Numbered from the stretch's first letter, positions 471 to 55,946 are shown. The stretch is 64,000 nt of DNA from Candidatus Onthousia faecigallinarum (GCA_018716225.1 DVKE01000048.1:166-64165), one strand, 5' to 3'. Notes: generated from the sequence alone by a model not told the origin. Numbers and translations are program-made.

Positions 471-1361
471 TTATTTATTAGTTAATAAATTATTTTCTTC
501 TTTTACTTGTTTTTGAAGCAACTCTAAATCTTTCATACTTTTACTATTTTGTAATGATTTCATTTGTCTTTTTGCAGATTCATTTAGTCTTATTAATCTC
601 TCTCTTTGGGATAACCCATCTTCAATTAATTCTGCACTTGTATTCTGTAAATTATTTAAAATGACTAAATGTAGTAAATCAGTATAATCTCTAATATTTC
701 CATTTTTAGCTAATTCTGGATTTTTATCTCTCCACTGTTTTGCTGTCATACCAAATAACGCTACATTTAAAATATCTGCTTCATCTGAATAAACGTGTTG
801 TTTTTGACTTTCTGTTAAATTCGGAATTATGCATTCTTTTATTGCATCAGTATGAACAACATAATTAACTTTAGATAAAAGTCTTGTTGCGCTCCATTCT
901 ATTTTATATTGATATGCTTCATTTGTTTTTAATCTTTCAAACTCTTTTATTAAATACAACTTAAATTCAGGAGATAACCAACTTGCAAATTCAAATGCAA
1001 TATCTGGATGAGCAAATGTTCCTTTACTATATTTTCCACTACTTGGGATAATACCAATAGCATTAAAATCTCTTTTCCAACGATTAGGTGTCATAGTGAA
1101 ACGATTGTATCCAACTTCATCAATTTTAATTCTGTGTGATTCCACGGAATTAAAATTTTCATTATTTAGTTCTTCCCATAAACTATAATAATCAAATGAA
1201 TTTTTATTTGACATCCAATTTCTAATTACTCCAGATGGATCCTCAGGATTTGCTTGTTTTGCTAAATCCGTTAAAGAAATATAATTAACATTTTCTACTC
1301 TTAATATACCTATTTTATTTTCTTTTACTACTATTTCAGTTGTTACTGAATCTTTTTTCAA
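471..1361 (-). CDS. KilA-N domain protein (phage antirepressor-like)
   Basis: The motif GTFAHPDIAFEFASWLSPEF matches the KilA-N signature (G.WAHPDLA.EFA.WLSPEF). It lies next to integrase remnants. Confidence 0.75.
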   Translation of the reverse strand: MKKDSVTTEIVVKENKIGILRVENVNYISLTDLAKQANPEDPSGVIRNWMSNKNSFDYYSLWEELNNENFNSVESHRIKIDEVGYNRFTMTPNRWKRDFNAIGIIPSSGKYSKGTFAHPDIAFEFASWLSPEFKLYLIKEFERLKTNEAYQYKIEWSATRLLSKVNYVVHTDAIKECIIPNLTESQKQHVYSDEADILNVALFGMTAKQWRDKNPELAKNGNIRDYTDLLHLVILNNLQNTSAELIEDGLSQRERLIRLNESAKRQMKSLQNSKSMKDLELLQKQVKEENNLLTNK

Positions 1362-1521
1362 TATTTATCTCTCCTTTCTATTTAAATTTTAAAAAATGTC
1401 AACAAATTTATTTTTGTTAACATCCTTTATTTTCAATAAATTTTGTACACTTTTTTCATAATTGGTTGACAAGCAATAAATTTATTACCTTTTCTAATAT
1501 TGATTTTTCCCTTATTTTATG

Positions 1522-1566
1522 CTACTTTCCGCAACATTGTTTATATTTTTTGCCCGAACCACATGA
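1522..1566 (-). other. Divergent duplicate of the secA 3' end (encodes ..SCGSGKKYKQCCGK*), a putative att remnant
   Basis: Minus-strand translation gives GMFSSCGSGKKYKQCCGK-stop. It is about 78% nucleotide identical to the true secA 3' end at 5321-5365 (PCPCGSGKKYKQCCGK-stop), with a shared 11-nt run CATTGTTTATA. Confidence 0.6.
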
Positions 1567-1589
1567 ACTGAACATTCCTATATTTATGT

Positions 1590-1693
1590 TATTTATTGTA
1601 TTTATAGTACTATTTGTATTTATTGTATTCCGGTATCAGGTATCATCTGTATTTATCGTATTTATAGTATTATCTGTACTTATAGTATTTATC
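1590..1693. repeat. About 11 tandem copies of a 9-bp unit GTATTTATN (iteron-like)
   Basis: Read directly: gtatttatc gtatttata gtattatct gtacttata gtatttatc, with earlier gtatttata/gtatttatt copies. Confidence 0.7.
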
Positions 1694-1697
1694 TACT

Positions 1698-1725
1698 GTG
1701 GACTATTTGTGGACATTGACCACAT
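1698..1725. repeat. TGTGGAC(T/A) x2 plus CCACAT motif cluster (reverse-complement of the TGTCCACA motifs at 5196-5262)
   Basis: tgtggacta at 1698-1706, tgtggacat at 1708-1716, accacat at 1719-1725. Confidence 0.5.
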
Positions 1726-1829
1726 TCGTTCACTGAAATAAGTATATCATATTTTTCTTTTTTATAAAATGTGCAAATTTAATAATTAATAATATCTATT
1801 TTTTATAATAATGAAATGTTACATATCTT

Positions 1830-2462
1830 TTATTTAGTTTTTATATTATTATTAGCAATATAGGGTTCATATACGTTTTTATATTTTTCTATTGTTTCAT
1901 CTACATTAAACCAATAAACATTTGTTAATATTCCATCAGATGGATCTACTTCTGTTCTTTCTAATTTACCACCTAATGCTTTTAAAGTTTTGTCTGAGCC
2001 AAGATTATTAACATCGCAATCAAGCATTACCTTTTCTAAACCTACTTTTTTTGCCTCTAACATCCCTAAATATAGATTTATCTTGTTATATCCTTTTCTT
2101 CTCTCTGTTGGTCTAATTCCATAACCTATATGTCCACCAAATCTTAGCATTGCTTCATTCAAATTCCATCTTACATTAATAGTTCCTACAATTTTATTAT
2201 CATTTTCTCTAATTAATAGAAATGTCCTGCCTTGACATCTTCCAACACTTTTAGCATATTCTTCATCTTCCATCTTTAGGCATCTATCAAGTGCTTCTTC
2301 AAAAGTATAGCCATCATAAATTTTATCTAATGAACCAGAACCATTTATATCTGATCCATATTTAACAAATTCATCAAGATATTCAATTATTTCATTTTTT
2401 CTTTCTAGTGATGGTATTTCAAAATAAAATTTTTCCACTAATATCACATCCTTATACATCAA
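1830..2462 (-). CDS. GNAT family N-acetyltransferase
   Basis: 210 aa. It has an acetyl-CoA binding-type segment (RCQGRTFLLIREND..IGYGIRPTERRKGY). It sits inside the putative island. Confidence 0.55.
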   Translation of the reverse strand: MMYKDVILVEKFYFEIPSLERKNEIIEYLDEFVKYGSDINGSGSLDKIYDGYTFEEALDRCLKMEDEEYAKSVGRCQGRTFLLIRENDNKIVGTINVRWNLNEAMLRFGGHIGYGIRPTERRKGYNKINLYLGMLEAKKVGLEKVMLDCDVNNLGSDKTLKALGGKLERTEVDPSDGILTNVYWFNVDETIEKYKNVYEPYIANNNIKTK

Positions 2463-2507
2463 TTATAACATAATTTCTTAAATAATTTACATTTTCAGAT
2501 ATCTTAC

Positions 2508-3736
2508 TTAATTCACATTTGACCTTATACTATTTTCAAATAATTTAATTACTTCATTTTTATCAACTTCTGTACTTCTAATATAATACTTTTCAGTAGT
2601 TTCTATCCTTCTATTTCCTAGTACTTCAGCAATATCTTTTATTTCACAACCATTTCTTAAACTAATAGTTGCAAAACTTCCTCTTAAATCATAAAATCTA
2701 CATTTTACTCCTAATTCATGATGGATTATTTTAAAAGGATATTTAACAATATCAGTTCCAGAATATGTTCCATCTTTCCTAGTAAATACCATATCTACTT
2801 TATTGTGTCTTGAATTACTTTCTACAATTTTATATTCAACTAACTTACCATATTTATTTTTTACTTCCTCTAAAACATGTTTTTTATAATTCTTACTGTA
2901 TTGCTTTTTATAATTATCTTGTATCTTTTTATAGTCTAGTAAAATTTTATATAAAGTGTCACATATATAAATCTCTCTTTGACTTTCAACTGTTTTGGTG
3001 GTACCTAAATACCATCTTCCTATTTCTTCTTTATCTTTTGCATACACAGTTTTATTTATTTTAATAATTCTATTATCTAAATCTATATCATTCCAAGTTA
3101 AAGCAAATACTTCGCCTGTTCTCATACCTGTATAACATGCAGTAAGAAATGCAGTTATAAATACTTTATTATTTTTAAATCTATTTAAAATTAGTTCTAT
3201 CTCTTCATTAGTATAGACATGACCTACATTGTTTTTTTTAATTCGAATGATAATACTCTAGGTATCTGTAAATCTGCTGCTGGATTATATTTAATAAATC
3301 CAAAATAATAAGTAGCATCTCTTAATGAACTTTTAATTACTTTTTGATAGTTTCTTAATGCTTCTTTTGTAGTAGAAGTTTGATATAGTCTTAGTAATGC
3401 TTGATTTAAACTAAATGAAGTAATTGCAGATAGTTTATAGTTACCTAACTCTCTTTTAATATTACCAAAAGATTCTTTATATCTTTTTGCTGTAGAATAT
3501 TTATAATTTATTTCAAAGTATTCTCTCATCCAGTAATCTAAATATTCAGAATATAACATATTACACTCTTTTGTACTTTCTCCACTAATAAATTCTTCAT
3601 ATGCTCTTTTTCCTGCTATATATGCATCTCTTTTTGTTTTAAAACCTGATTTTGATATTTGTTTTCTTTTACCATTTACCTTTCCTGCTTCAAATCTATA
3701 TTCATATAGATTATTTCTTTTTCTAATACTAATAAT
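2508..3736 (-). pseudogene. Tyrosine recombinase / phage integrase copy 2, disrupted by at least two frameshifts
   Basis: The C-terminal catalytic ORF (2508-3125, stop-to-stop up to 3257) has the R..HxxR..Y motifs (HHELGVKCRFYDLRGSFAT..NRRIETTEKYY). The SAM-like N-terminal domain is a separate ORF (3224-3559) in another frame. The junction lies in an A8/T8 homopolymer (3231-3240). The arm-binding N-terminus (GIIISIRKRNNLYEYRFEAGKVNGKRKQ) is out of frame with the ATG at 3734-3736. Confidence 0.75.
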
Positions 3737-3793: not shown

Positions 3794-4786
3794 TTAAATA
3801 CTAAGTCCTACTTTTTCTTTTACTATTTCCATTTTTTTAGAAGCATATACTCTAGCCTTATTAGCACCATTTGTTAATATTTCTTTTAAATGCTTTTCAT
3901 CATTTCTATATTGATAAAATTTGTCTTGAATATCTTTAATAAATTTACAAACACTATCAGCAACTTCAATTTTAAAATCTTTATAATTATAATCCTTGTA
4001 TTTTTCATTTGCTTCCTCAATAGTCATATTGTTAACTACACATACTAATGATATTAAATTAGATATTCCTGGTTTATTATTTTCATCATAATAAACTTTA
4101 CCTTCACTATCGGTACAAGCAGACATTATTTTCTTTCTTGTTATTTCTATATCATCTAACATAAATATTGTTCCTTTATCATCCTTTGGAGCAGATTTAC
4201 TCATTTTAATTGTTGGATCTTGTAAGTTCATTATTTTTGCACCAATTTTTGGAATTTGATATTCTGGTAATTTGAAAGTATTACCATAAATATTATTAAA
4301 TCTCTCTCCAAAATCTCTAGTTTTTTCAATGTGTTGTCTTTGATCTGCACCTACTGGTACTATTTCAGCATCATATAATAATATATCTGCTGCCATTAAA
4401 GTTGGATAAATAAATAAGCCCATATCTTTTTCACTTTTTCCTAATTGTTGTTTTTTTGATTTAAACTGTGTCATTCTAGATAATTCACCAACACTACATT
4501 GAAATGACATTAAAAATCCTAAATTACAATGTTCTAAAACATCACTTTGCATAAATAATGCTGTATTTTTAATATCAATTCCACAAGCCATATACATTGC
4601 TGTTATATCTAATATGTTATTTCTTATTTCTTTTGGATTAATATAAGTTGTTAATCCATGAATATCTGCAATAAATATTAAGGAATTATATTTGTATTGT
4701 TGTTCTACAAATCCTTTTATACCTCCAATATAATTTGCTAAAGTTATACTTCCTGTAGGTCTTACCCCAGTAATCATTGTTTTCAT
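3794..4786 (-). CDS. trpS: Tryptophan--tRNA ligase
   Basis: 330 aa. It has the N-terminal class I signature region (TGVRPTGSITLANYIG) and a KMSKS motif. Similarity to B. subtilis TrpRS runs throughout. Confidence 0.9.
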   Translation of the reverse strand: MKTMITGVRPTGSITLANYIGGIKGFVEQQYKYNSLIFIADIHGLTTYINPKEIRNNILDITAMYMACGIDIKNTALFMQSDVLEHCNLGFLMSFQCSVGELSRMTQFKSKKQQLGKSEKDMGLFIYPTLMAADILLYDAEIVPVGADQRQHIEKTRDFGERFNNIYGNTFKLPEYQIPKIGAKIMNLQDPTIKMSKSAPKDDKGTIFMLDDIEITRKKIMSACTDSEGKVYYDENNKPGISNLISLVCVVNNMTIEEANEKYKDYNYKDFKIEVADSVCKFIKDIQDKFYQYRNDEKHLKEILTNGANKARVYASKKMEIVKEKVGLSI

Positions 4787-8708: not shown

Positions 8709-8844
8709 GCTACAATCACCTCACATTCTTTTTAGTCTACCACCTTGTATTTCCAAATGTTGTAAACAGAGCATAACAAAGAACCAAAAATAAAGATAGT
8801 TTTTTTCTTTAAAAAGTCATTTCTTTTCTCTAAATGGCATCTTC

Positions 8845-8879
8845 AACAAGATTTTGTCGAAATATGTCGAATCTTGTTG
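8845..8879. promoter_or_regulatory. 9-bp inverted repeat enclosing two tandem TGTCGAA heptamers (Spo0A-box-like), in the cspA/agrB divergent intergenic region
   Basis: The sequence is caacaagat tt TGTCGAA ata TGTCGAA tcttgttg. The heptamers are 10 bp apart. Confidence 0.45.
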
Positions 8880-8959
8880 TAACAACCAGATATTATAAAA
8901 AAAATAAGGAAAAACAAAGAAAAAAAGTAGTACTCTTTTTGATAGATAAGGTGATACAT

Positions 8960-9550
8960 ATGAAAGAAAAATTCTTAAAAAGTTCTATGAATTTTATTAC
9001 CAAAAACGAAACAATAGATGAGGAAACAAAAGAAAAAATAGCTTTTGGCTTAGAAGGACTATATCTTTCTGTTACAAAGCTAATAATTATCAATCTACTA
9101 GCCTTTTCATTAGGAATTTGGCTAGAATTTGTAATTTTCTTAGCGTTGTTCAATTTTTTAAGATTTTTTGGATTCGGAGCTCATGCCAACAATTCAAAAA
9201 CTTGTCTCATTACATCATCCCTTTTACTTGTTGGAACACCCTATCTATTTTTAAAATTATCTTTGCCGACATATCTTATTTACACCTTATGTACTACTTC
9301 CATTATTATTTTTATCCTTTATGCACCAGCAGATACAGAAAAAAGACCATTAACAAATAAAAAGAAAAGGAAGATAAGAAAATTTATGACTGTTATAGTT
9401 GCTTGTATTTTTACCATCCTTATTGTTATACTTAAAAATCACACCATAAAGATGTTATTACTTAGTAGTCTCATAGTAGAAAGCATTATGGTTTTACCCA
9501 TTACTTATAAAATATTAAAAATACCGTATCGGAACTATTTAAAGGTTTAA
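8960..9550 (+). CDS. agrB: AgrB-like autoinducing-peptide processing peptidase / membrane protein
   Basis: 197 aa from the ATG at 8960 (RBS AAGGTGA). It is a multi-TM protein. The GAHANNSKTC segment places His and Cys 7 residues apart, as in S. aureus AgrB H77/C84. Confidence 0.75.
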   Translation: MKEKFLKSSMNFITKNETIDEETKEKIAFGLEGLYLSVTKLIIINLLAFSLGIWLEFVIFLALFNFLRFFGFGAHANNSKTCLITSSLLLVGTPYLFLKLSLPTYLIYTLCTTSIIIFILYAPADTEKRPLTNKKKRKIRKFMTVIVACIFTILIVILKNHTIKMLLLSSLIVESIMVLPITYKILKIPYRNYLKV

Positions 9551-9595
9551 ACACATTGTTTGTGTTTAAATAAATTTTTATAAGGAGGTGAAAAC

Positions 9596-9715
9596 ATGAA
9601 AAAAAGAGTTGCAAAAATTGTCGCTGCCATTGCTTTAATGTTAACGGCTAGTGCTAGTACAGGATGTGTCTTTTTGATTGCAGATGAACCTAAAGCATTA
9701 AAAAATATGGACTAA
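9596..9715 (+). CDS. agrD: AgrD-like autoinducing peptide precursor (39 aa)
   Basis: It has a strong RBS TAAGGAGGTG. It has an amphipathic leader MKKRVAKIVAAIALMLTASAST, then a single Cys in GCVFLIA and a charged tail DEPKALKNMD. It lies immediately downstream of agrB. Confidence 0.6.
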   Translation: MKKRVAKIVAAIALMLTASASTGCVFLIADEPKALKNMD

Positions 9716-9747
9716 AAAAAGATTCCACATCGTCGAATCTTTTTTTA
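9714..9747. terminator. Bidirectional rho-independent terminator between convergent agrD and agrC
   Basis: The sequence is aaaaaa AGATTC cacatcgtc GAATCT ttttttt. Confidence 0.6.
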
Positions 9748-9758
9748 TTTTATCGAAA

Positions 9759-11045
9759 TTAAATGACCGTTAATCTCTGAATAAAGAAATCATTTAACAC
9801 ATTATTCTCAGTAGATAAATACTTTGATTTTTGTATTGTTTTAGTAGCATAGTATAATCCTTTTCCATGTCCTTTCCCCTTTGTTGTATACCCTTTCTTG
9901 TTCATATCTTCAACTTTAACATTTCCTTCATAAGTATTTGATATTACAAAATTAACTTCTTCCTCTAAAGAATATATTTCTAGTGTAACCTGCTTTCTCT
10001 TTGATTCCTTTGCTGCCTCAATAGCATTATCTAAATATATTCCTAATACAATCCCAATATTCCTGATTTGTTTTGTAGTAAGTCTTTCTATCTTCTTCGT
10101 TACTTTTGAACTTACATCTACAATCATTTGTACTTTCTCATTTTTTGCAACTGCTATCTTATAATATAGTAGACCTTTTAACCCACCTTTAGGAACATTC
10201 TTTAAATCTTCTATATATTCTTCATCTACTATAATACTTACCTTCAACATATCATCGATTTTATCAATAACTTTCTTATTCTTTGTCATACTCCTTAACA
10301 TCGATAAATTATTCTTTAACTCATGTCGATACATCTGCTCATCATCTATCCAATTTTCAAAATCTTGTACATAATCAAATAATATATTGTATTCATCACT
10401 TAACTTTTGATACTTATCCTTCTCATCCAGATAAAAATAAGCTAACAAAATAAAAATTACTATACTAATAGATGTAATAGTATAATATAAATTAAGCTTA
10501 AAAACAGAAACTATATTATAATATAATAATGTTATTACTATTATTATCAAGATAAAAAAAAGAATCAATGTTAAATAATTATTTCTATCTATCTTCCCAC
10601 ATAAATTTTTTATCTTTATCTTTAAAAAACTGAAAGTCGACATAAAATAAGAAAAAAAGCCTATTATAATATTATTAATTAAAGCTAAACATAAATTTTT
10701 TCGAATGGAATAATATGGTATAAAATTCAATTCAATAGAAACAACTAACAAATCAAAAAGAGTAATCAATATAAAAAATATCCCACTAATCAAAATTGAA
10801 TTTACAAAACTAATTCGAAACATTTTATGAAACACAATCCCATAAACCAAAAAAGACAACAATAATACAAAAGAATTATATTCAACTTTATAAAATAAAC
10901 AAACTGGCAAAATCATAAAAAGAAAATAAATTAAATTCGAAATACTAAATATCTTTCTATCACTTTCCACTAGTTTGCGTACTATCAATAATGCAATTAT
11001 TGCCATAAATGAAGATCCCAATACTTTAATCAACAACAGTGACAT
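9759..11045 (-). CDS. agrC: AgrC-like sensor histidine kinase (HPK10 / GHKL)
   Basis: 428 aa. The N-terminal half is polytopic. The C-terminal has an HATPase_c region (NAIEAA..GHGKGLYY) and a coiled HisKA-like region. Confidence 0.75.
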   Translation of the reverse strand: MSLLLIKVLGSSFMAIIALLIVRKLVESDRKIFSISNLIYFLFMILPVCLFYKVEYNSFVLLLSFLVYGIVFHKMFRISFVNSILISGIFFILITLFDLLVVSIELNFIPYYSIRKNLCLALINNIIIGFFSYFMSTFSFLKIKIKNLCGKIDRNNYLTLILFFILIIIVITLLYYNIVSVFKLNLYYTITSISIVIFILLAYFYLDEKDKYQKLSDEYNILFDYVQDFENWIDDEQMYRHELKNNLSMLRSMTKNKKVIDKIDDMLKVSIIVDEEYIEDLKNVPKGGLKGLLYYKIAVAKNEKVQMIVDVSSKVTKKIERLTTKQIRNIGIVLGIYLDNAIEAAKESKRKQVTLEIYSLEEEVNFVISNTYEGNVKVEDMNKKGYTTKGKGHGKGLYYATKTIQKSKYLSTENNVLNDFFIQRLTVI

Positions 11046-11758
11046 TTCTCCATCAACTCCTTTTTATGATTTCGAGCAACCGCATCAAGCTTCATACCAT
11101 TAGAAAAATAAATGACATTTGATTTCACATCAAAAGTACGAACCATATTAAGATTTACTAAAAAACCTCTATGTACCTTTAAAAAACGTTTATCTAATGT
11201 TTTCTCTAATTCAACGATAGACTTAGGAACTTTAAAGGTTCCATACGTAGTATAAACAATAGATCTCTTACTCTCTTGTTCCTTTTCAATATACACAATC
11301 TTACGAAATTCAATTTTATGAAGCATATAATTATATTCATAAGTTAAACATTTCTCCCTTGTATCATAATGTTTCATAATAATTTTTAAGACACTTAAAA
11401 TTTTGTCATCAATACCTCCACATTTAGAAATAAAATCTAATAAAAACAAACGATTCGTCAACGCCGTATATCTATATTCATCATACGCCGTCACAATAAC
11501 GATTAAAGAATTCCAATCTTCTACTTTTTCACGGATAAGTCTAGCAGCATCAATCCCAGAAGCATTACCCGTTCTAATATCAAGAAAATAAACCTTATAT
11601 CCGATATCAGCTGTTGTAATCCCATTAAAATCATGATCATAACAATCAAAAGAATAGATATTATAACTAGTATTATAATTCATCATGAACTTTCTGATAT
11701 CATTTTTCATAACTTCTAAAAACTTTTCATCATCATCACATAAAATAAAATTTAGCAT
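11030..11758 (-). CDS. agrA: LytTR-family response regulator (AgrA-like)
   Basis: It has a receiver domain (ILCDDDE) and a C-terminal LytTR DNA-binding domain (FLKVHRGFLVNLNMV). The start is chosen at MLNFIL, with RBS GGGAG 7 nt upstream. Confidence 0.75.
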   Translation of the reverse strand: MLNFILCDDDEKFLEVMKNDIRKFMMNYNTSYNIYSFDCYDHDFNGITTADIGYKVYFLDIRTGNASGIDAARLIREKVEDWNSLIVIVTAYDEYRYTALTNRLFLLDFISKCGGIDDKILSVLKIIMKHYDTREKCLTYEYNYMLHKIEFRKIVYIEKEQESKRSIVYTTYGTFKVPKSIVELEKTLDKRFLKVHRGFLVNLNMVRTFDVKSNVIYFSNGMKLDAVARNHKKELMEKCHCC

Positions 11759-11866
11759 ACTACAACTCTCCCTTCTAAAAATCATACATAGATAATTTTA
11801 CCATATTTTTCCTTTTTAGAACGAAAAAAGACAAGAAAAAAGAATAGTTATAAAGCCATATGTCGC

Positions 11867-14843: not shown

Positions 14844-15530
14844 TTATTCCGTTTTTTCTTCAGTAGTACTATTGTCATTAGTTTCACTAGACTTAGTTTC
14901 TACAGTTTTATCAAAGTAAGTATTAGGATTAACAATCTGTCCATTTTGGTATAACTCAAAATGTAAATGATTCCCTAAGTCTTTATCAAGCGTATTCGTA
15001 CCACTCTTCCCTATCACTTGTCCTTGTTTCACAGTATCATTTTTCTTAACACTAACTTCACTTAGACTCTGATAACTACTGATTAAATCATTGCTATGTT
15101 TTATTTCTACAATTGTTCCTAACAATTCATCCTCTGATACATTCGTTACTGTTCCATCTAAAACTGCTACCACATCAAAAGGAGTATCAAGAGTAAAGTC
15201 CATTCCTGTGTTTTGAATATAAGTATTCTCATGATATAAAATTGATTTTTCTTGTGTTTCACTATCACCCTGATAGTCATAATAGTATTTGGCTATTTGA
15301 ACTTTTTCATCAGTATAGGGTTTGATCATTGAAACCTCTTGATTAACAACTTCTATCTCATCGTCATTTGGTTCAATGATTGTTTGATTAACATAATCTA
15401 ATTGTTCCTCTTCGCCAACTGATGATTTCATGCTATTGCTAACAACAAAAGCTCCTATTCCAGTTAAAACAAAAGCCATCAAATAAACACTTGCAACAAC
15501 AACCCCTTTTTTTAATCTTAATTTTTTCAT
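14844..15530 (-). CDS. M23/LytM family peptidase with N-terminal TM (SpoIIQ-like)
   Basis: It has an N-terminal TM. The C-terminal LytM domain (GNHLHFELYQNG) has an intact HxH. Its size and architecture resemble clostridial SpoIIQ, and it lies adjacent to the mreB-like gene. Confidence 0.5.
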   Translation of the reverse strand: MKKLRLKKGVVVASVYLMAFVLTGIGAFVVSNSMKSSVGEEEQLDYVNQTIIEPNDDEIEVVNQEVSMIKPYTDEKVQIAKYYYDYQGDSETQEKSILYHENTYIQNTGMDFTLDTPFDVVAVLDGTVTNVSEDELLGTIVEIKHSNDLISSYQSLSEVSVKKNDTVKQGQVIGKSGTNTLDKDLGNHLHFELYQNGQIVNPNTYFDKTVETKSSETNDNSTTEEKTE

Positions 15531-20520: not shown

Positions 20521-21054
20521 CTATCCAAAATATTTTGTAATTAAGTCCTGCACAAAGAATTTATATTCTACTGCATTTGTATTGGTTTCTTCTGCTTCTA
20601 ATAAACAAAGAGGTGGAAACAATACACACCACCAATTCTCCCCCTTTCCTTCTCCTAAAGTTACAACCAAAGATTCGTAATATCCTTCTTTATAAGTAAC
20701 CCCTTTATATTTTTTCTCTGGAAAATAATTAAGGCCATAATGAACTTGGAACAAATCATCTTCTTTATTCTCTAATAACGTCCGAGAAACAACCCCTTCA
20801 AAACGATTGACATTATTTTTTAATAAACTTCTAGTGGTAGAAACATCATGACTATTTTCAAGTAGACTCGTAATATCTTTTTGCAAAGCATCTCGTACTT
20901 TGATTTTATTGTTCTGATCTTCCACACTATTGGAAGCGGCAATTACGCGAAAACGAATCGCTTCATCGGGAATAATAACTTCTGTAGAATTTTTATTTTT
21001 TGAACCAAATATGCCAATTAAAATTAAACTAGCAATAATTAGGATCTTCTTCAT
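20521..21054 (-). CDS. spoIIR: Stage II sporulation protein R
   Basis: It has IPDEAIRFRVIAASNS and ENWWCVLFPPLCL motifs matching B. subtilis SpoIIR. It lies next to prmC-prfA as in Bacillus. Confidence 0.85.
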   Translation of the reverse strand: MKKILIIASLILIGIFGSKNKNSTEVIIPDEAIRFRVIAASNSVEDQNNKIKVRDALQKDITSLLENSHDVSTTRSLLKNNVNRFEGVVSRTLLENKEDDLFQVHYGLNYFPEKKYKGVTYKEGYYESLVVTLGEGKGENWWCVLFPPLCLLEAEETNTNAVEYKFFVQDLITKYFG

Positions 21055-40380: not shown

Positions 40381-41271
40381 TTACTGATCTAAATTCATAA
40401 TTTCAAGAATTCTAGTTAAATCATTTGCATTTGTAAATTTAATTTCAATTTTATTATTTTTAATTTTTACTTTTGTTCCCAATTTTTCACAAAGATTATC
40501 CGCTACATAATCATATTCATTATGCTCTTTTTTTGTTTTTGATATTTCCTTTTTACGATGATATTCCAAAGGAGAAGAAGTTAATTCTTCTAATTTTCGA
40601 ACACTAAGGCCATCATTTACAACCTTATCAGCCAATTCCAAAATCTGCTTTTTATCGTTTAATTTACTTAAAATACGAGCATGGCCCATGGTTAACTGAC
40701 CTGTTGTAATATAATCTTTTACTTCTTCTGGAAGTTGTAAAAGACCTAACATATTCGTAACATGACTACGACTCTTTCCTACTTTCTTTGCTAGTTCTTC
40801 TTGGGTTAAATGAAGAGATTCTTGTAATTTTTGATAAGCGGTCGCTTCCTCTAAAGCAGACAAATCCTCTCTTTGTAAGTTCTCAAGAAGAGCAATTTCC
40901 ATCATCTCTTCATCGGTAAAGTTTTTAACAATCGCCGGTATTGTTTCTAAACCAGCCATCCGACTTGCTTTTACTCTACGTTCTCCAGCAATGATCTCAT
41001 ATCCTTTTACACTTTTTTTCGCAATAATAGGTTGAAAAACGCCATGTTTTTTAATTGAATCTGCAAGTTCTTGTAAAGATTCTTCCTCAAAATTTTTACG
41101 AGGTTGATAAGGATTACTACGTAGCTCATCCAATTTAAGATTAACAATACTCTCTTTTGGCGTACTATCAATAATTCGCTCTTCTACTTGACTAATATCC
41201 ATCTGTTCACTACTGAACAATTCTTCTAATCCTTTTCCCAACGCTCTTCTTTTAGTTTCCATTTTGTTCAA
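40381..41271 (-). CDS. spo0J: Chromosome partitioning protein ParB/Spo0J
   Basis: GERRVKASRMAGLETIPAIV has the ParB box and an HTH. Confidence 0.9.
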   Translation of the reverse strand: MNKMETKRRALGKGLEELFSSEQMDISQVEERIIDSTPKESIVNLKLDELRSNPYQPRKNFEEESLQELADSIKKHGVFQPIIAKKSVKGYEIIAGERRVKASRMAGLETIPAIVKNFTDEEMMEIALLENLQREDLSALEEATAYQKLQESLHLTQEELAKKVGKSRSHVTNMLGLLQLPEEVKDYITTGQLTMGHARILSKLNDKKQILELADKVVNDGLSVRKLEELTSSPLEYHRKKEISKTKKEHNEYDYVADNLCEKLGTKVKIKNNKIEIKFTNANDLTRILEIMNLDQ

Positions 41272-42037
41272 TCACTTCCTTTGCTAGATTTAAATAAGCC
41301 TCTGCCCCTTTACTTTTTGGATCATAAACAATAATTGGTTCTCCATGACTTGGCGCTTCTGTTAAACGAATTAACCGAGGGATAATGGTATTATAAACCT
41401 TTTCTTTGAAAAATTTGCGTATATCATCAACCACTTCAAATCCCAAGTTTGTTCTTGAATCTAACATAGTTAAGAGTACTCCTTCAATATCTAAGTTTGG
41501 ATTTAATTGCTTTTGAGCTAACCGAATGGTATTCAAAAGTTGCATAATTCCCTCTAAAGCAAAAAATTCACATTGAACAGGAATAATAACAGAATCACTT
41601 GCTGTTAAAGCATTCGTGGTAATAAGGCCTAACGAAGGAGGACAATCAATGATAATAAAATCAAATTTATCTTTGATTAATGCCAGATGTTGTTTTAATT
41701 GAGCACCTTTTACAAAGCTAGGATCTGTTTGACTTTTCTCCATTAATTCAATATCAAGTCCAGCTAAATTGATCGTAGCCGGCAAAACATAAAGTTGTTT
41801 ATATTTCGTCTTAACCATAGCATCAAGAATATTACACTTGTTGGTCAAAACATCATAAACACTTCTTTCAATATCTCCTTTATTAATTCCAACACCAGTA
41901 GTCGTATTTCCTTGCGGATCAAGATCGATCAACAAAACCCTTTTTCCAAAAAAAGCTAGTGAAGCTGAAAGGTTAATACTAGTAGTTGTCTTTCCTACTC
42001 CGCCTTTTTGATTCACTAATGAAATAACCTTTCCCAT
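41252..42037 (-). CDS. soj: Chromosome partitioning ATPase ParA/Soj
   Basis: It has Walker A KGGVGKTT. The start is chosen at MGKVISL, with RBS GAGTGA. The longer ORF extends to 42118. Confidence 0.9.
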   Translation of the reverse strand: MGKVISLVNQKGGVGKTTTSINLSASLAFFGKRVLLIDLDPQGNTTTGVGINKGDIERSVYDVLTNKCNILDAMVKTKYKQLYVLPATINLAGLDIELMEKSQTDPSFVKGAQLKQHLALIKDKFDFIIIDCPPSLGLITTNALTASDSVIIPVQCEFFALEGIMQLLNTIRLAQKQLNPNLDIEGVLLTMLDSRTNLGFEVVDDIRKFFKEKVYNTIIPRLIRLTEAPSHGEPIIVYDPKSKGAEAYLNLAKEVIEQNGN

Positions 42038-42140
42038 ATTTATCACTCTCTTCTTTTTCCATCTAGTACTCTTATTTATTGTATCAAAAATAAAAAGAGT
42101 TGAAAACCATTTTAGCAAAAAAAGTAGATTTCTCTACTTC

Positions 42141-43646
42141 TTAACTTTCTTTTTCCTTGGTAATTTTGATTACAATTTGATAATTCTTTTCAAAGTCCAT
42201 CTCTTCAATATCTACTTTGAAACCACTCGCTTCGATATCTTTTACAGTATTACGAATTAATTCGATAGATTCATTTAAATCATAATGAGGTTTTGCCTCC
42301 ACAGTTTGTTGTTTGATACCTTCCAATTTCTGAACATCGTCCGCAAAAATAGGATTATGAGCGAAAGGATTACTATAAGTATCCAAATAAGGTATTTTGT
42401 CTTCTTCTTTTGATGATGGAGCTGTTAAACTAGAATCAACAACAGGAGGAGTTTTTCCAACTCCAGCAAGAAGAGTGTCCATAGAAGTAGGAGTCGATGA
42501 TTCCATTTCCTTTTTCGAAGGAGTAAAATCATCTGCCGTAATTCCTGGGGTAGGAATAATATTTGCATTAATATTACTGCCTTCTTGGTTATTTGGTTTA
42601 TTCTCTTGTCTTTCTTCCTCTTTATCATCTAATGGTTGAAAGAAACGAAAAGTAGATGGAGAAGGATCACTTGATGAAGAGGTTGATGAATTATCATCAG
42701 AAGATTTTGATTCCGTCGTTCCTTTTAATAAATCATCAGTATTAACGTTTTTCGGAATACTTTGAGGAATATCTTGAGCCGTTGCCTTCATCTCATCTAA
42801 ATTAATAGGCATACTAGCAGTGCTTGTCAAATCACTATCAATAGTCTTCGGTACATCTTCACCATAATCAATAAATTTTGGAGGAGTACTATAATCAATT
42901 CCAACACTTTGATTGAACTCTGAAGAAGTAGAAGCTGGGATAGAAGTTGTAGAAGTATTCGAAGAAGATACTTTCGTTTCTGGTTCATTTACCGGTACTG
43001 CCTTTGTTTTTAATAATTGCTCCATTTCTTCTGTTGAAACGGTTGGCTTTTGATTAATCTTCTCTTCCAATTCCCGAACAGTCATTTTTTTATCAATAAT
43101 TTCCTTTAGCAATTCTTTTTGCTTTTCTTTATCTGGAACACTAAGAAGAGCTCTAGCATGTCTTTCTGAAATTTGATCTTTTAATAAAGCATCTTGCACT
43201 TCTTCTGGTAAAGATAATAATCGAAGTTTATTCGCAACTGCACTTTGACTTTTTCCCATTGTCTTAGCAAGTTCTTCTTGAGTCATCTGATCAAGTTCCA
43301 AAATCTTTTGATAAGTTCTTGCTTCTTCAATAGGATTCAAATTTTTCCTTTGTAAATTTTCAAGTAAAGCTACCTTACTACTTTCTTTATCATCTAAATT
43401 ACGAACAATCGCTGGAATTTTCGTAAGACCAGCTAATGCAGAAGCCTTATATCGACGCTCTCCAGCAATAATTTCATATTTATTTCCAATATTTCGAACA
43501 ATAATTGGTTGAATTACTCCATGCTCCTTAATAGAAACAGCTAATTCTTTCAACGATTTCTCATCAAAAACCTGTCTTGGCTGAAAACGATTTGGAATAA
43601 TATCATCTAAATATAAATATACAACTTCATTTTCATTATTTTGCAT
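42141..43646 (-). CDS. noc: ParB-family Noc-like protein with a long low-complexity S/T/P-rich C-terminal extension
   Basis: The N-terminal 200 aa is ParB/Noc-like (GERRYKASALAGLTKIPAIV). It is followed by about 270 aa of low complexity, then a short conserved C-terminal domain. Confidence 0.6.
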   Translation of the reverse strand: MQNNENEVVYLYLDDIIPNRFQPRQVFDEKSLKELAVSIKEHGVIQPIIVRNIGNKYEIIAGERRYKASALAGLTKIPAIVRNLDDKESSKVALLENLQRKNLNPIEEARTYQKILELDQMTQEELAKTMGKSQSAVANKLRLLSLPEEVQDALLKDQISERHARALLSVPDKEKQKELLKEIIDKKMTVRELEEKINQKPTVSTEEMEQLLKTKAVPVNEPETKVSSSNTSTTSIPASTSSEFNQSVGIDYSTPPKFIDYGEDVPKTIDSDLTSTASMPINLDEMKATAQDIPQSIPKNVNTDDLLKGTTESKSSDDNSSTSSSSDPSPSTFRFFQPLDDKEEERQENKPNNQEGSNINANIIPTPGITADDFTPSKKEMESSTPTSMDTLLAGVGKTPPVVDSSLTAPSSKEEDKIPYLDTYSNPFAHNPIFADDVQKLEGIKQQTVEAKPHYDLNESIELIRNTVKDIEASGFKVDIEEMDFEKNYQIVIKITKEKES

Positions 43647-43748: not shown

Positions 43749-45468
43749 GTAACAGTTCAGACTTAGACACTGAAAAAGAAGAGTAATTTCAAAGTTGCTC
43801 TTTTATTATGAAAATAATATTTGTTTATTAAATATAGCTTTGATAGATTCAAAAGGATTTATTCCTCTTTTTATAGAGGTCTTTATTATCGATAGAGTAT
43901 TTACATAATGTTTCGCTGCTTCCATACTTCTAAATCCACCTGATATTTTTGTTTTAGTTTTAAACATTCTTAAATCTTGCTCACTTAAATTATTATCAAA
44001 TGGTACTTCAAAATCTTTTATAAAGTATAAATGATTACTTTTGTACTTCTTTAATCTTCTGTATAGTTTGTTTGCTTTCTCTTTATAGTAACTGGATTTT
44101 ATTAATTTGTTTTCCTCCTTTGCTAATTCTAAAAGACTATCAAATTCTTTTTCATATTCTTTTATCTTATCCTTATCAAATTTTTTTAATCCAAAACTAA
44201 TAGCTATTTTTTTAGTATTATTCATCCTAAAAATAAATTCTTTCAACTTTGTTGCCCAAGTTATATTTTTTATATTTTGAATCAGTTCCTCTAAGTATCT
44301 TCCTACATGAATATTACATTCATAATTTTCTATTCCATATCTTTGTAATGTAGTATCATGATCTCCCATAATACCACCACAAAAACGGGTAAGGATATTA
44401 TCCTCTTGAATAGGGCTATGTCCCTTATTTTTATGTGCTTTATAAATAACAGTATTTTCATTACTATAATTTCTCACATACATATTCTTCTCATTAAACT
44501 TAGTTCCCGTTTCGTCGGTATAGGTGTACTTACTATCAAGTATATCCTTTTCTAAGATTTCTAGTGTAGGGATACATTTATGACTAAACTCATAAAAAAT
44601 ATTTACAAGATTTCCTTTTGATATTCGAATTACTCCATCTGTTATTACATTAAAGAAATAGTCAATCTATCATATGATATAACATTATAAACACCTAATT
44701 CAATGGAAAGTGCTTTTATACTGTTATCATAAGTAACATCAGTATAGAACTCTTTTGGAAGAGTATCTTTTGCATTTTCTTCATATCTAAATACATGTTT
44801 TTCAACATAAGGCTTTATTTCTATTCCTAGTTTATATTTTATTATATTTTCTTTTGATGCCTTGCCTTTTATAGTATGAGAAAATTCTCTTACTTCCACT
44901 TTTTTCTTTTCAATTAATTTTTCAACAGTTTCTTTATTTAATGAATGGCCAATATGTCCATATTGTCCCCCTGATTTCTTTATGCTCTTGATTCTATAAT
45001 TGTATATGTTAGAGCCTGTCTTCTTTTTAGGAGTAGTCATATTAGTGGATGATGGTTTCGAAGAATTAGAACTATTTTTATTATTTTTGTTTTTTAATCT
45101 GTCTATTTCTTCTAATAATTGTGTAATTTTTTCATCTTTTTCTTGGATAATTTTATTTAATTTCTTTATTTCTAAATTGAGGTTATAAATAATTAGTGAT
45201 TGTTCATTTATTTTTTGTAATGATGCGTCTAATTTTTTAGAAATTTCTTCCAATTGCTTAAACATATCTGTCATATATCCTTTACCCATTTAAATCACTA
45301 TCCTCTATAGATTATAGTATTACAATAAATCATTTATAAATCAATAGTTTTGAAGCGATTTCTTAAATCTGTGGATAAAGTAAAAATAAGAGTCCATAAA
45401 ACCCTTATTTTTCAATACCTATTTTATTCAATTGTGCATAATTTTTTGTTTAAGATCTGAACTGTTAC
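43749..45468. mobile_element. IS66-family insertion sequence (single-transposase type), 1720 bp, with 13-bp terminal inverted repeats GTAACAGTTCAGA and an 8-bp target site duplication TCATAAAT
   Basis: The left end is GTAACAGTTCAGA at 43749-43761. The right end is its reverse complement at 45456-45468. The duplications TCATAAAT lie at 43741-43748 and 45469-45476. Confidence 0.75.
43806..45289 (-). pseudogene. IS66-family transposase, frameshifted near 44645-44666
   Basis: The N-terminal ORF (44645-45289) has a coiled-coil and KSGGQYGHIGHS block. The C-terminal ORF (43806-44483, stop-to-stop up to 44666) has the YTDETGTK DDE region and DNNLSEQDLR..KISGGFRSMEAAKHYVNTLSIIKT. The two are in different frames. 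Confidence 0.7.
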
Positions 45469-52959: not shown

Positions 52960-53160
52960 TCCCCACAAGCTATTTTTTATTTTTCCACAAAATTCACAGG
53001 CTGTGGAAAACAAAAATAAACATGTGCATAACAAATCTGTGGAAAATGTGGAAAACTCTATTTTTCCTTAAAATAAAACACAATTATCTGTGGAGAAAAT
53101 TGTCGAAAAATTGTGGATAAAATTTTTTTCAATTTTTTCTATTCCTTTTTCCACAGTTTT
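52960..53160. promoter_or_regulatory. oriC: oriC part 1: DnaA-box cluster upstream of dnaA, with an adjacent TGTCGAA heptamer
   Basis: Seven boxes match TTATCCACA within 1 mismatch: 52981-52989, 53002-53010, 53038-53046, 53047-53055, 53089-53097, 53112-53120 (perfect) and 53147-53155. TGTCGAA lies at 53101-53107. Confidence 0.85.
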
Positions 53161-55838: not shown

Positions 55839-55946
55839 AAAGTTCTATTTTTTTCCACAATAGCCAAAATTCGACAAAATCCGACAATAAAATATAGTAT
55901 ACTGAGAACCAAAAACAGTTACTATCACTGTAAGGGGAGAGGAAAA

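Follow-up and report, generated by a model that had tools for sequence, protein, structure and literature searches.

Work on quorum sensing of the agr type has dealt almost exclusively with pathogens and a few clostridia. In the latter, agrBD and agrCA have already been described as separate operons (PMC12312760), and Clostridium acetobutylicum employs a six-membered, tail-less signal, [CVLVTL] (PMC12312760), which has been detected by mass spectrometry (PMC8251862). The present work concerns a locus of this kind in Candidatus Onthousia faecigallinarum, contained in a stretch of 64,000 nucleotides (GCA_018716225.1 DVKE01000048.1:166-64165), which is here called the window and whose positions are counted from its first letter. 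An earlier annotation, made from the letters of the window and referred to below as the sequence-only reading, had proposed an agr-type locus at this place, and four intact genes are indeed found there between 8800 and 11815: agrB and agrD on the plus strand and, convergent to them, agrA and agrC on the minus strand, with the regulator first (Table 1). We conclude that the locus very probably encodes an agr-type autoinducing-peptide quorum-sensing system, working along the lines of the mechanism proposed below. The agr system appears here as a conserved core feature of a large group of uncultured Bacilli of the animal and human gut.

The comparative evidence comes from relatives of the AgrB protein encoded in the window. 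One genome per species was scanned, 317 loci were found and the best 80 of these 317 were retrieved.

The AgrB Peptidase and the Convergent Layout

The product of the first gene, AgrB, matches the Pfam model PF04647 with 120 bits (expectation value, E, 8e-35; cut-off 23 bits) and the NCBIfam model NF002210 at E 2e-36. It carries the motif GAHANNSKTC, in which H75 and C82 (residues are counted from the ATG at 8960) stand seven positions apart and align with H77 and C84 of Staphylococcus aureus AgrB, as the sequence-only reading had claimed. The identity between the two proteins is 26% over 170 amino acids, with the His/Cys pair and R70 (R68 here) aligned. In 25 relatives H75, C82, R68 and an APxDTxKRP motif are invariant. 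The protein has four or more hydrophobic segments, and among solved structures no relative of AgrB was detectable by sequence. The start of agrB is the ATG at 8960, because the relatives, 194-200 amino acids in length, align from that methionine; the start at 8845 (or at 8834, as the extent of the earlier annotation implied) belongs to an upstream extension of the open reading frame. Public gene calls for AgrB (238 amino acids in P0001, 228 in L084-L093) also begin 32-42 codons too early and run across the tandem TGTCGAA boxes discussed below, and the form of 196 amino acids fits all relatives.

The convergent arrangement of agrBD and agrAC is a fixed trait of the whole clade and not peculiar to this genome, as it is observed in every related locus that is long enough to judge (about 60 species). 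The two gene pairs are predicted to be two convergent transcription units with a common bidirectional terminator. Specifically, a hairpin with 16-nucleotide arms (94% complementary) and a 3-nucleotide loop lies at the junction of agrD and agrC, and folds on both strands with -13.2 and -14.1 kcal/mol (z -3.1 and -2.6). In 67 relatives the stop-to-stop gap between agrD and agrC has a median of 23 nucleotides and a minimum of 2, and nearly all of them possess a hairpin of the form A-run, stem, T-run at the junction, sometimes overlapping the coding ends. The split architecture and the bidirectional terminator of the sequence-only reading are hence both recovered. Its contrast with the single operon of S. 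aureus holds in that two units are present here, but the layout is a property of the clade rather than of this genome. A consensus scan for promoters and terminators was uninformative: promoter-like sites occurred at the chance rate, and the hairpin was missed because its stem has fewer than three G-C pairs by the rule of the scan. Neither RNAIII nor another agr-linked RNA family was found in the 64-kb window with Rfam.

The AgrD Precursor and the Size of the Ring

The open reading frame of agrD begins 45 nucleotides after agrB and is preceded, at a distance of 5 nucleotides, by the ribosome-binding site AAGGAGGTG. Its translation, MKKRVAKIVAAIALMLTASASTGCVFLIADEPKALKNMD, holds a single cysteine at position 24, as previously noted. 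A homologous small open reading frame lies 3' of agrB in about 75 related loci, and 29 of 42 members of the AgrD family match the NCBIfam model TIGR04223 (E up to 1, best E 2.4e-6). Because of this comparative evidence we take the frame of 39 amino acids to be real, and its earlier assignment as the AgrD precursor is upheld by the homologues that follow agrB. The window peptide itself reaches 17.0 bits against TIGR04223, the cut-off of which is 19. As for the Pfam model PF05931 (AgrD), which had been suggested as a check, no match was obtained for the window peptide or for its 42 relatives, and the window AgrD has no match to any Pfam model; the PF05931 result is not counted against the AgrD assignment because that model is staphylococcal, and it is the broader TIGR04223 that matches members of the family. 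The exact peptide is recorded in 207 blocks of a public assembly collection.

A conservation profile of AgrD over 76 species reveals three parts. The leader follows the consensus MKKRxAKxLAAVAMLATxSASxG; the core consists of an invariant cysteine and exactly five hypervariable residues, with 1.9-3.0 bits each; the follower begins with [D/E], continues with an invariant E-P and usually K-A-L-K-N-M, and closes on a terminal D. G23, C24, E31, P32 and the terminal D are invariant in the family, and the 76 species have 72 distinct cores of cysteine plus five residues. The conserved [D/E]-E-P-K-A-L follower is an AgrD feature, in agreement with the AgrD-like DEPKALKNMD tail noted earlier. A different picture emerges for the leader, which had been described as amphipathic: composed of MKKR, a hydrophobic core and then A-S-A-S-T-G, that is, a charged start, a hydrophobic stretch and small residues, it looks like a Sec-type signal peptide and not like an amphipathic helix. 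Two invariant motifs of the form small-x-small offer possible sites of leader cleavage: after Ala20 (A-x-A), which would leave an S-T-G tail, or after Gly23 (S-x-G), which would leave no tail.

A leader of this kind raises the question of whether the frame might instead encode a lipoprotein or a secreted peptide of small size that has nothing to do with processing by AgrB. The N-terminus does fit a permissive lipoprotein signal pattern (K/R, hydrophobic core, S-T-G-C), and a few family members match lipoprotein signal models weakly. The residue at position -3, however, is serine in 70 of the 76 relatives instead of the leucine or large hydrophobic residue of a lipobox, and the two genuine lipoproteins of the window have L-T-G-C; for this reason the lipoprotein assignment was rejected. 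Moreover, the frame always lies directly after agrB, and the [D/E]-E-P-K-A-L follower and the TIGR04223 matches are features of AgrD. A lipoprotein or unrelated secreted peptide is accordingly very improbable, and we proceed with the AgrD precursor.

The sequence-only reading had predicted a thiolactone ring of five residues, C-V-F-L-I, that bears a short tail at its N-terminus; AgrB would then cut between Ile28 and Ala29. Such a ring would agree with most characterised autoinducing peptides, which are five-membered (PMC12312760), and with the five-membered Listeria signal CFMFV. Position 29, on the other hand, varies as the ring positions do (2.81 bits, 11 residue types), and the conserved follower begins only at D/E30. 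The spacing in characterised precursors points in the same direction. The AgrD of C. acetobutylicum reads ...GKCVLVTLYEPKMP..., that is, GK-CVLVTL-YEPKMP (PMC10301443 supplement), and its distance from the cysteine to E-P-K (C-x5-X-E-P-K) is identical to that in C-VFLIA-D-E-P-K of the window. The S. aureus ring has M32 as its last residue, directly followed by D33-E34, which contact K139 and R70 of AgrB, E34 being essential (PMC10482373); in the window AgrD, D30-E31 come directly after A29, and R68 of AgrB, the equivalent of R70, is invariant. Both S. aureus and C. acetobutylicum thus have one residue between the ring end and the conserved Glu or Glu-Pro, which corresponds to an end at Ala29. 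Because of the C. acetobutylicum spacing, the placement of D-E in S. aureus and the variability of position 29, we place the AgrB cut after Ala29. By this analogy, the mature macrocycle is probably a six-residue thiolactone, C-V-F-L-I-A (C24-A29), and the five-residue ring is not the best supported form; we consider it unlikely, though not negligibly so. The computed [M+H]+ values are 647.3585 for cyclo-CVFLIA and 892.4597 for STG-[CVFLIA], as against m/z 576.3214 and 821.4226 for the five-ring forms. If the six-residue thiolactone were tail-less, its rearrangement to an all-amide ring would be expected, as in clostridia (PMC8251862).

The AgrC Kinase and the AgrA Regulator

The HPK10-type polytopic kinase and the LytTR response regulator of the sequence-only reading are both found on the minus strand. 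AgrC has seven hydrophobic segments in residues 1-206, His241 within an RHELKN box, and recognizable N and G boxes. Its best match among solved structures is the kinase module of S. aureus AgrC (E 6e-10), with RHELKN aligned to RHDYVN, and it aligns end to end with the NCBIfam model of staphylococcal AgrC (E 1.6e-15), far below the cut-off of that model. The agrC gene starts at either 11045 or 11006, and in the former case the stop of agrA overlaps the agrC start by 16 nucleotides. The start of agrA is the ATG at 11758, with the ribosome-binding site AAGGGAG, and gene callers also give 242 amino acids. In addition to its LytTR domain, AgrA matches the NCBIfam AgrA model (E 2e-12), and its best match among solved structures is the LytTR domain of S. 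aureus AgrA (E 5e-6); its receiver domain (Response_reg) scores 24 bits, under the cut-off of 30.2.

The four proteins do not diverge at the same pace. Across 56 species, the sensor half of AgrC has a median identity of 26.6% to the window and the kinase half 46.5%; the medians for AgrB and AgrA are 48% and 48-49%. Since the fast divergence of the sensor parallels the hypervariable core of AgrD, the neighbouring kinase is argued to be the receptor of the peptide, and the pattern argues for a co-diversification of ligand and receptor as in the staphylococcal agr groups. An alternative is that the AgrD peptide acts through another receptor, the neighbouring kinase and regulator being blind to it and responding to a different cue. 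Precedents are the agr1 system of C. difficile with RgaS-RgaR and agrBD of C. perfringens with VirS-VirR; non-autoregulatory or uncoupled agr circuits are documented in clostridia (PMC10602386), and in the window, too, the two gene pairs are on separate transcription units. This alternative appears improbable to us in view of the adjacency of the four genes, identically arranged across about 60 species, of the divergence of the sensor half in step with the AgrD core, and of the LytTR-type repeats upstream of agrB. AgrC is hence retained as the presumed receptor.

Some relatives carry two tandem agrC paralogues (L057, 5788-8426; L063, 5821-8447), and one has a duplicated agrD-agrC pair (L036, 5650-8661), which suggests receptor duplication within the module. 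A short agrC in one metagenome scaffold, L088, was considered as a natural agr-defective variant and rejected, the apparent loss of 415 bp being a run of N (3896-3995), that is, a scaffolding gap.

LytTR-Type Repeats at the agrB Promoter

In 68 relatives a pair of direct repeats of 13 nucleotides, at a spacing of 20-22 bp (21 bp in 48 loci), begins 150-160 bp before the agrB ATG, with the consensus TTCCGTTAATTGT / CCTTAAATGGT. The corresponding pair of the window lies 155 bp before the ATG, in a position orthologous to the pairs of the relatives, and is conserved in an alignment with sister species; at 16.9 bits it is the top match in the 64 kb to a matrix built from the relatives. When promoters held out from the matrix were scored, 23 of 41 agrB promoters reached at least 12 bits and none of the 58 agrA promoters did. 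As the repeat pair occurs at agrB and not at agrA promoters, positive feedback appears to act on signal synthesis alone. The sequence TCCGTTAAT of the relatives fits the published 9-mer consensus for AgrA at 9 of 9 positions. A matrix scan of the window gave no other convincing AgrA target, the next match (13.4 bits) lying inside a gene.

Tandem TGTCGAA Boxes and a Possible Link to Spo0A

Between the LytTR-type pair and agrB, a perfect inverted repeat encloses two TGTCGAA boxes, which together form the sole perfect TGNCGAA-N3-TGNCGAA of the window (8855-8871); even with one mismatch allowed, 0.16 such sites are expected. In a survey of 81 loci, comprising 675 kb of retrieved sequence, the density of TGTCGAA is 3.27 per kb within the 260 nucleotides that precede agrB, compared with 0.05 per kb in the remaining sequence, a 65-fold difference. 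At least one box is present in 51 of the 81 loci and a perfect 7+3+7 tandem in 19, and all perfect tandems within the surveyed sequence sit upstream of agrB. The boxes lie about 100 nucleotides before the ATG (interquartile range 99-104) in either orientation. Since the orientation flips between sub-clades at a fixed position, they are not a -35 or -10 element of the core promoter.

The 7+3+7 tandem is the arrangement found at abrB of Bacillus subtilis. The box itself is the core of the 0A-box bound by Spo0A in Bacillus and C. difficile (PMC3485338). Moreover, the window encodes SpoIIR at 20521-21054 on the minus strand (Pfam 131 bits, cut-off 25; TIGR02837 E 5e-40) and a SpoIIQ-like M23 protein at 14844-15530 on the same strand (E 7e-51), so the organism has sporulation genes. 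On these grounds we tentatively propose, as a serious possibility, that the tandem boxes are Spo0A sites that would link signal production to the master regulator of sporulation. They may instead bind AgrA or another regulator, or belong to the core promoter. In favour of this, spo0A was not observed in the window, the boxes are placed where an AgrA-dependent promoter might be expected, and a second conserved element with 10-bp phasing (TGGAAAnATATGGTAAAAT), located before agrA, indicates that the locus has other unexplained operators. The exact identity with the 0A-box core, the tandem form shared with abrB and the presence of sporulation genes speak for Spo0A, however; the flips in orientation exclude a -35 or -10 element, and the repeats to which LytTR proteins bind are spaced by 21-22 bp rather than by 10 bp. 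A role of the boxes other than in Spo0A binding is thus conceivable but somewhat doubtful.

Two more near-tandem 0A-like boxes, with one mismatch each, are present in the window at 53091-53107 (plus strand) and 55870-55886 (minus strand), one right where dnaA begins and the other immediately behind dnaN. The window thereby contains three 0A-like tandem sites, against the 0.16 expected by chance.

The Element Upstream of agrA

The promoter region of agrA has a conserved element of its own. TGGTAAAAT occupies this position in 45 of 58 relatives, and the 19-mer TGGAAANATATGGTAAAAT is found a single time in each locus, in every case upstream of agrA, and is exact in 30 loci. From its sequence, the element looks like an extended -10 combined with a 10-bp-phased repeat; in the window clade it reads TGGAAAnATATGGTAAAAT over its 19 nucleotides, and some relatives carry a perfect tandem, TGGTAAAATATGGTAAAAT. 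A reading of the element as a sigma-H or sigma-F promoter, based on consensus sequences, was dropped, as the spacing fits poorly.

Proposed Mechanism

All catalytic and phosphotransfer residues are present in the agr proteins, and the following sequence of events may be proposed. AgrB would cleave the precursor after Ala29, releasing DEPKALKNMD, and would link the carboxyl group freed by the cut to the Cys24 thiol, thereby forming the six-residue thiolactone C-V-F-L-I-A. The signal-peptide-like leader would be removed afterwards, after Ala20, with an S-T-G tail remaining, or after Gly23, with no tail; in the latter case one would expect rearrangement of the thiolactone into an all-amide cyclopeptide, as happens in clostridia. 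The released peptide would then bind the hypervariable seven-helix sensor of AgrC, which would phosphorylate AgrA. Following its activation, AgrA would bind the 21-bp-spaced repeat pair upstream of agrB and more signal would be made. As agrA-agrC would be transcribed from a promoter of their own without such repeats, the feedback loop would cover signal synthesis alone. With less certainty, Spo0A bound to the tandem TGTCGAA boxes would tie signal production to sporulation.

Several points weigh against this mechanism or parts of it. The organism is uncultured, and function is read here from sequence comparison. The window AgrD falls slightly below the TIGR04223 cut-off and has no Pfam match, and the size of the ring is argued from analogy alone. 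The LytTR-type boxes of the window are degenerate: their 16.9 bits are equalled by 1 of 20 shuffles, and box 1 has CTT where the relatives have CCG. If TATTAT at 8891-8896 is the -10 element, the boxes lie about 50 nucleotides upstream of it, which is further than the AgrA boxes of the S. aureus P2 and P3 promoters. The spo0A gene was not seen among the genes of the 64-kb window and would lie outside it. Finally, clostridial agr systems are sometimes not autoregulatory (PMC10602386).

Table 1. Features of the agr locus in the window, in order of position.
Feature	Position	Strand	Description
LytTR-type direct repeat pair	8803-8840	+	21 bp apart; candidate AgrA binding site
LytTR-type box 1	8806-8818	+	TTCTTTAAAAAGT
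LytTR-type box 2	8827-8839	+	TTCTCTAAATGGC
Perfect 10-bp inverted repeat	8844-8879	+	CAACAAGATT / AATCTTGTTG; encloses tandem TGTCGAA; candidate Spo0A operator
Tandem TGTCGAA boxes	8855-8861 and 8865-8871	+	TGTCGAAATATGTCGAA; between LytTR pair and agrB
agrB	8960-9550	+	membrane cysteine peptidase, 196 amino acids; catalytic His75, Cys82
agrD ribosome-binding site	9582-9590	+	AAGGAGGTG
agrD	9596-9715	+	39-amino-acid precursor, MKKRVAKIVAAIALMLTASASTG-CVFLIA-DEPKALKNMD
Bidirectional intrinsic terminator (predicted)	9713-9747	both	A7, stem GATTCCAC/GTCGAATC, T7
agrC-like sensor histidine kinase	9759-11045	-	428 amino acids (415 if start 11006); HATPase_c_5 E 7e-11
agrA-like response regulator	11030-11758	-	242 amino acids, receiver and LytTR domain; LytTR (PF04397) E 1.4e-14
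Conserved element upstream of agrA	11795-11813	-	AGGAAAAATATGGTAAAAT; likely extended -10 (TGnTAAAAT), possibly with operator

Host Genome and Genomic Context

The host belongs to the class Bacilli and is an uncultured gut bacterium with a small genome. The window is an origin-proximal part of its chromosome, with dnaA, dnaN, gyrB, gyrA, rsmG, mnmG, mnmE, parB/noc, dnaB and ssb. One copy of the agr locus is present on a contig of 1.6 Mb (ENA ERZ21549426, s367.ctg000510c), and ten sampled copies of the locus have a DNA identity of 99.6-100%. The relatives are metagenome-assembled genomes of uncultured Bacilli or "Tenericutes", Candidatus Onthousia, Faecenecus, Faecimonas and Clostridium sp. CAG:417, from the gut of chicken, rabbit, ruminant, mouse and human. 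In close relatives the flanks are syntenic, with secA, hpf and a cold-shock gene on one side of agr and a WecA/MraY-type transferase on the other; the locus is therefore part of the chromosomal core and not a mobile insert. One relative, L082, whose AgrB is 81% identical and whose core is CVILLA, was considered as a second specificity group within the species; this was rejected, as the flanking secA is only about 88% identical, which makes it a sister species.

Sporulation-specific genes thus occur in a genome of 1.6 Mb, although close relatives carry the database labels "Tenericutes" or Bacilli. Elsewhere in the window, a fragment of an IS66-family transposase (225 amino acids) and a DUF6444 protein lie between noc/parB and rsmG (43806-45289, minus strand), which has the appearance of an origin-proximal insertion sequence that is split or has decayed. 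At 471-3125 (minus strand), genes for a KilA-N domain protein, a GNAT acetyltransferase and a truncated tyrosine recombinase (205 amino acids) adjoin trpS and are probably the remnant of an integrated element. At 40381-43646 (minus strand), a ParA gene is located between two genes of the ParB/Noc family, the second of which encodes 501 amino acids, including about 280 extra C-terminal residues without a family match.

Implications

Taken as a whole, the evidence would be in line with a spore-forming lineage of gut Bacilli in which a convergent agr module is fixed, each species has a private six-membered signal and agrBD, but not the pair of receptor genes, is under the direct control of Spo0A through the tandem boxes, alongside AgrA; we offer this combined picture as a possibility, with reservations about its several parts holding together. 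The 72 predicted cores of the 76 species constitute a set of candidate peptides for studies of cross-talk in the gut. The size of the ring is also of practical importance, since a synthetic peptide with a five-membered ring would probably either lack activity or act as an inhibitor. If the TGTCGAA boxes are Spo0A sites, they provide a simple and testable link between population sensing and spore formation, the process that governs the transmission of gut anaerobes. Under the combined picture given above, a single promoter of these gut commensals would hard-wire quorum sensing to the choice of whether to sporulate.

Comparison with Known Systems

The kind of system is well known, and the variant is undescribed in the searchable literature. 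It combines a convergent, regulator-first layout with a shared terminator, a signal-peptide-like leader with invariant G-C, a probable six-membered ring, candidate Spo0A boxes and a feedback that would cover agrBD alone. A search of the open-access literature, the coverage of which is incomplete, gave no description of an agrBD/agrAC layout that is convergent and has the regulator first, and this is no proof of novelty.

With S. aureus the locus shares an AgrB with His and Cys seven residues apart and a conserved R70, a D-E pair directly after the ring, a kinase with an alignable His box (RHDYVN there, RHELKN here), a hypervariable signal core matched by a hypervariable receptor sensor, and a LytTR regulator that binds repeats spaced by 21 bp, this binding being putative here. 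S. aureus differs in having a single four-gene operon with divergent RNAIII where two convergent units are found here, a ring of five residues and an amphipathic helix as leader; the staphylococcal AgrD model of Pfam does not match the peptide described here.

The system of C. perfringens has in common with ours the order of regulator and then kinase and a signal-peptide-like AgrD leader with small residues before the cysteine. Its signal, [CLWFT], is tail-less (PMC12312760), as may be the case here. Unlike the window locus, agrBD and virRS are unlinked in this organism, the ring is five-membered, and agrBD is not a target of activation by VirR (PMC10602386). In the agr1 system of C. difficile, a LytTR regulator activates agrBD via direct repeats and the circuit promotes sporulation (PMC10602386), both of which resemble what is proposed here. 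The kinase of that system, RgaS, is nevertheless encoded elsewhere and is no sensor of the AgrD peptide. In the link known there, agr acts on sporulation, and Spo0A boxes on the agr promoter are not reported.

C. acetobutylicum differs from the window locus in four respects: its operons are not described as convergent and have the kinase before the regulator; its AgrD leader is long, charged and not signal-peptide-like; a LanM-like gene follows its locus and none follows the locus here; and Spo0A boxes are not reported at its agrBD promoter. In common with the present locus, it keeps signal synthesis and signal sensing on separate transcription units (PMC12312760), has the C-x5-X-E-P-K spacing in AgrD (PMC10301443) and makes the six-membered macrocycle that is predicted here. 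C. acetobutylicum is, moreover, a sporulating host, and its agr system feeds into sporulation.

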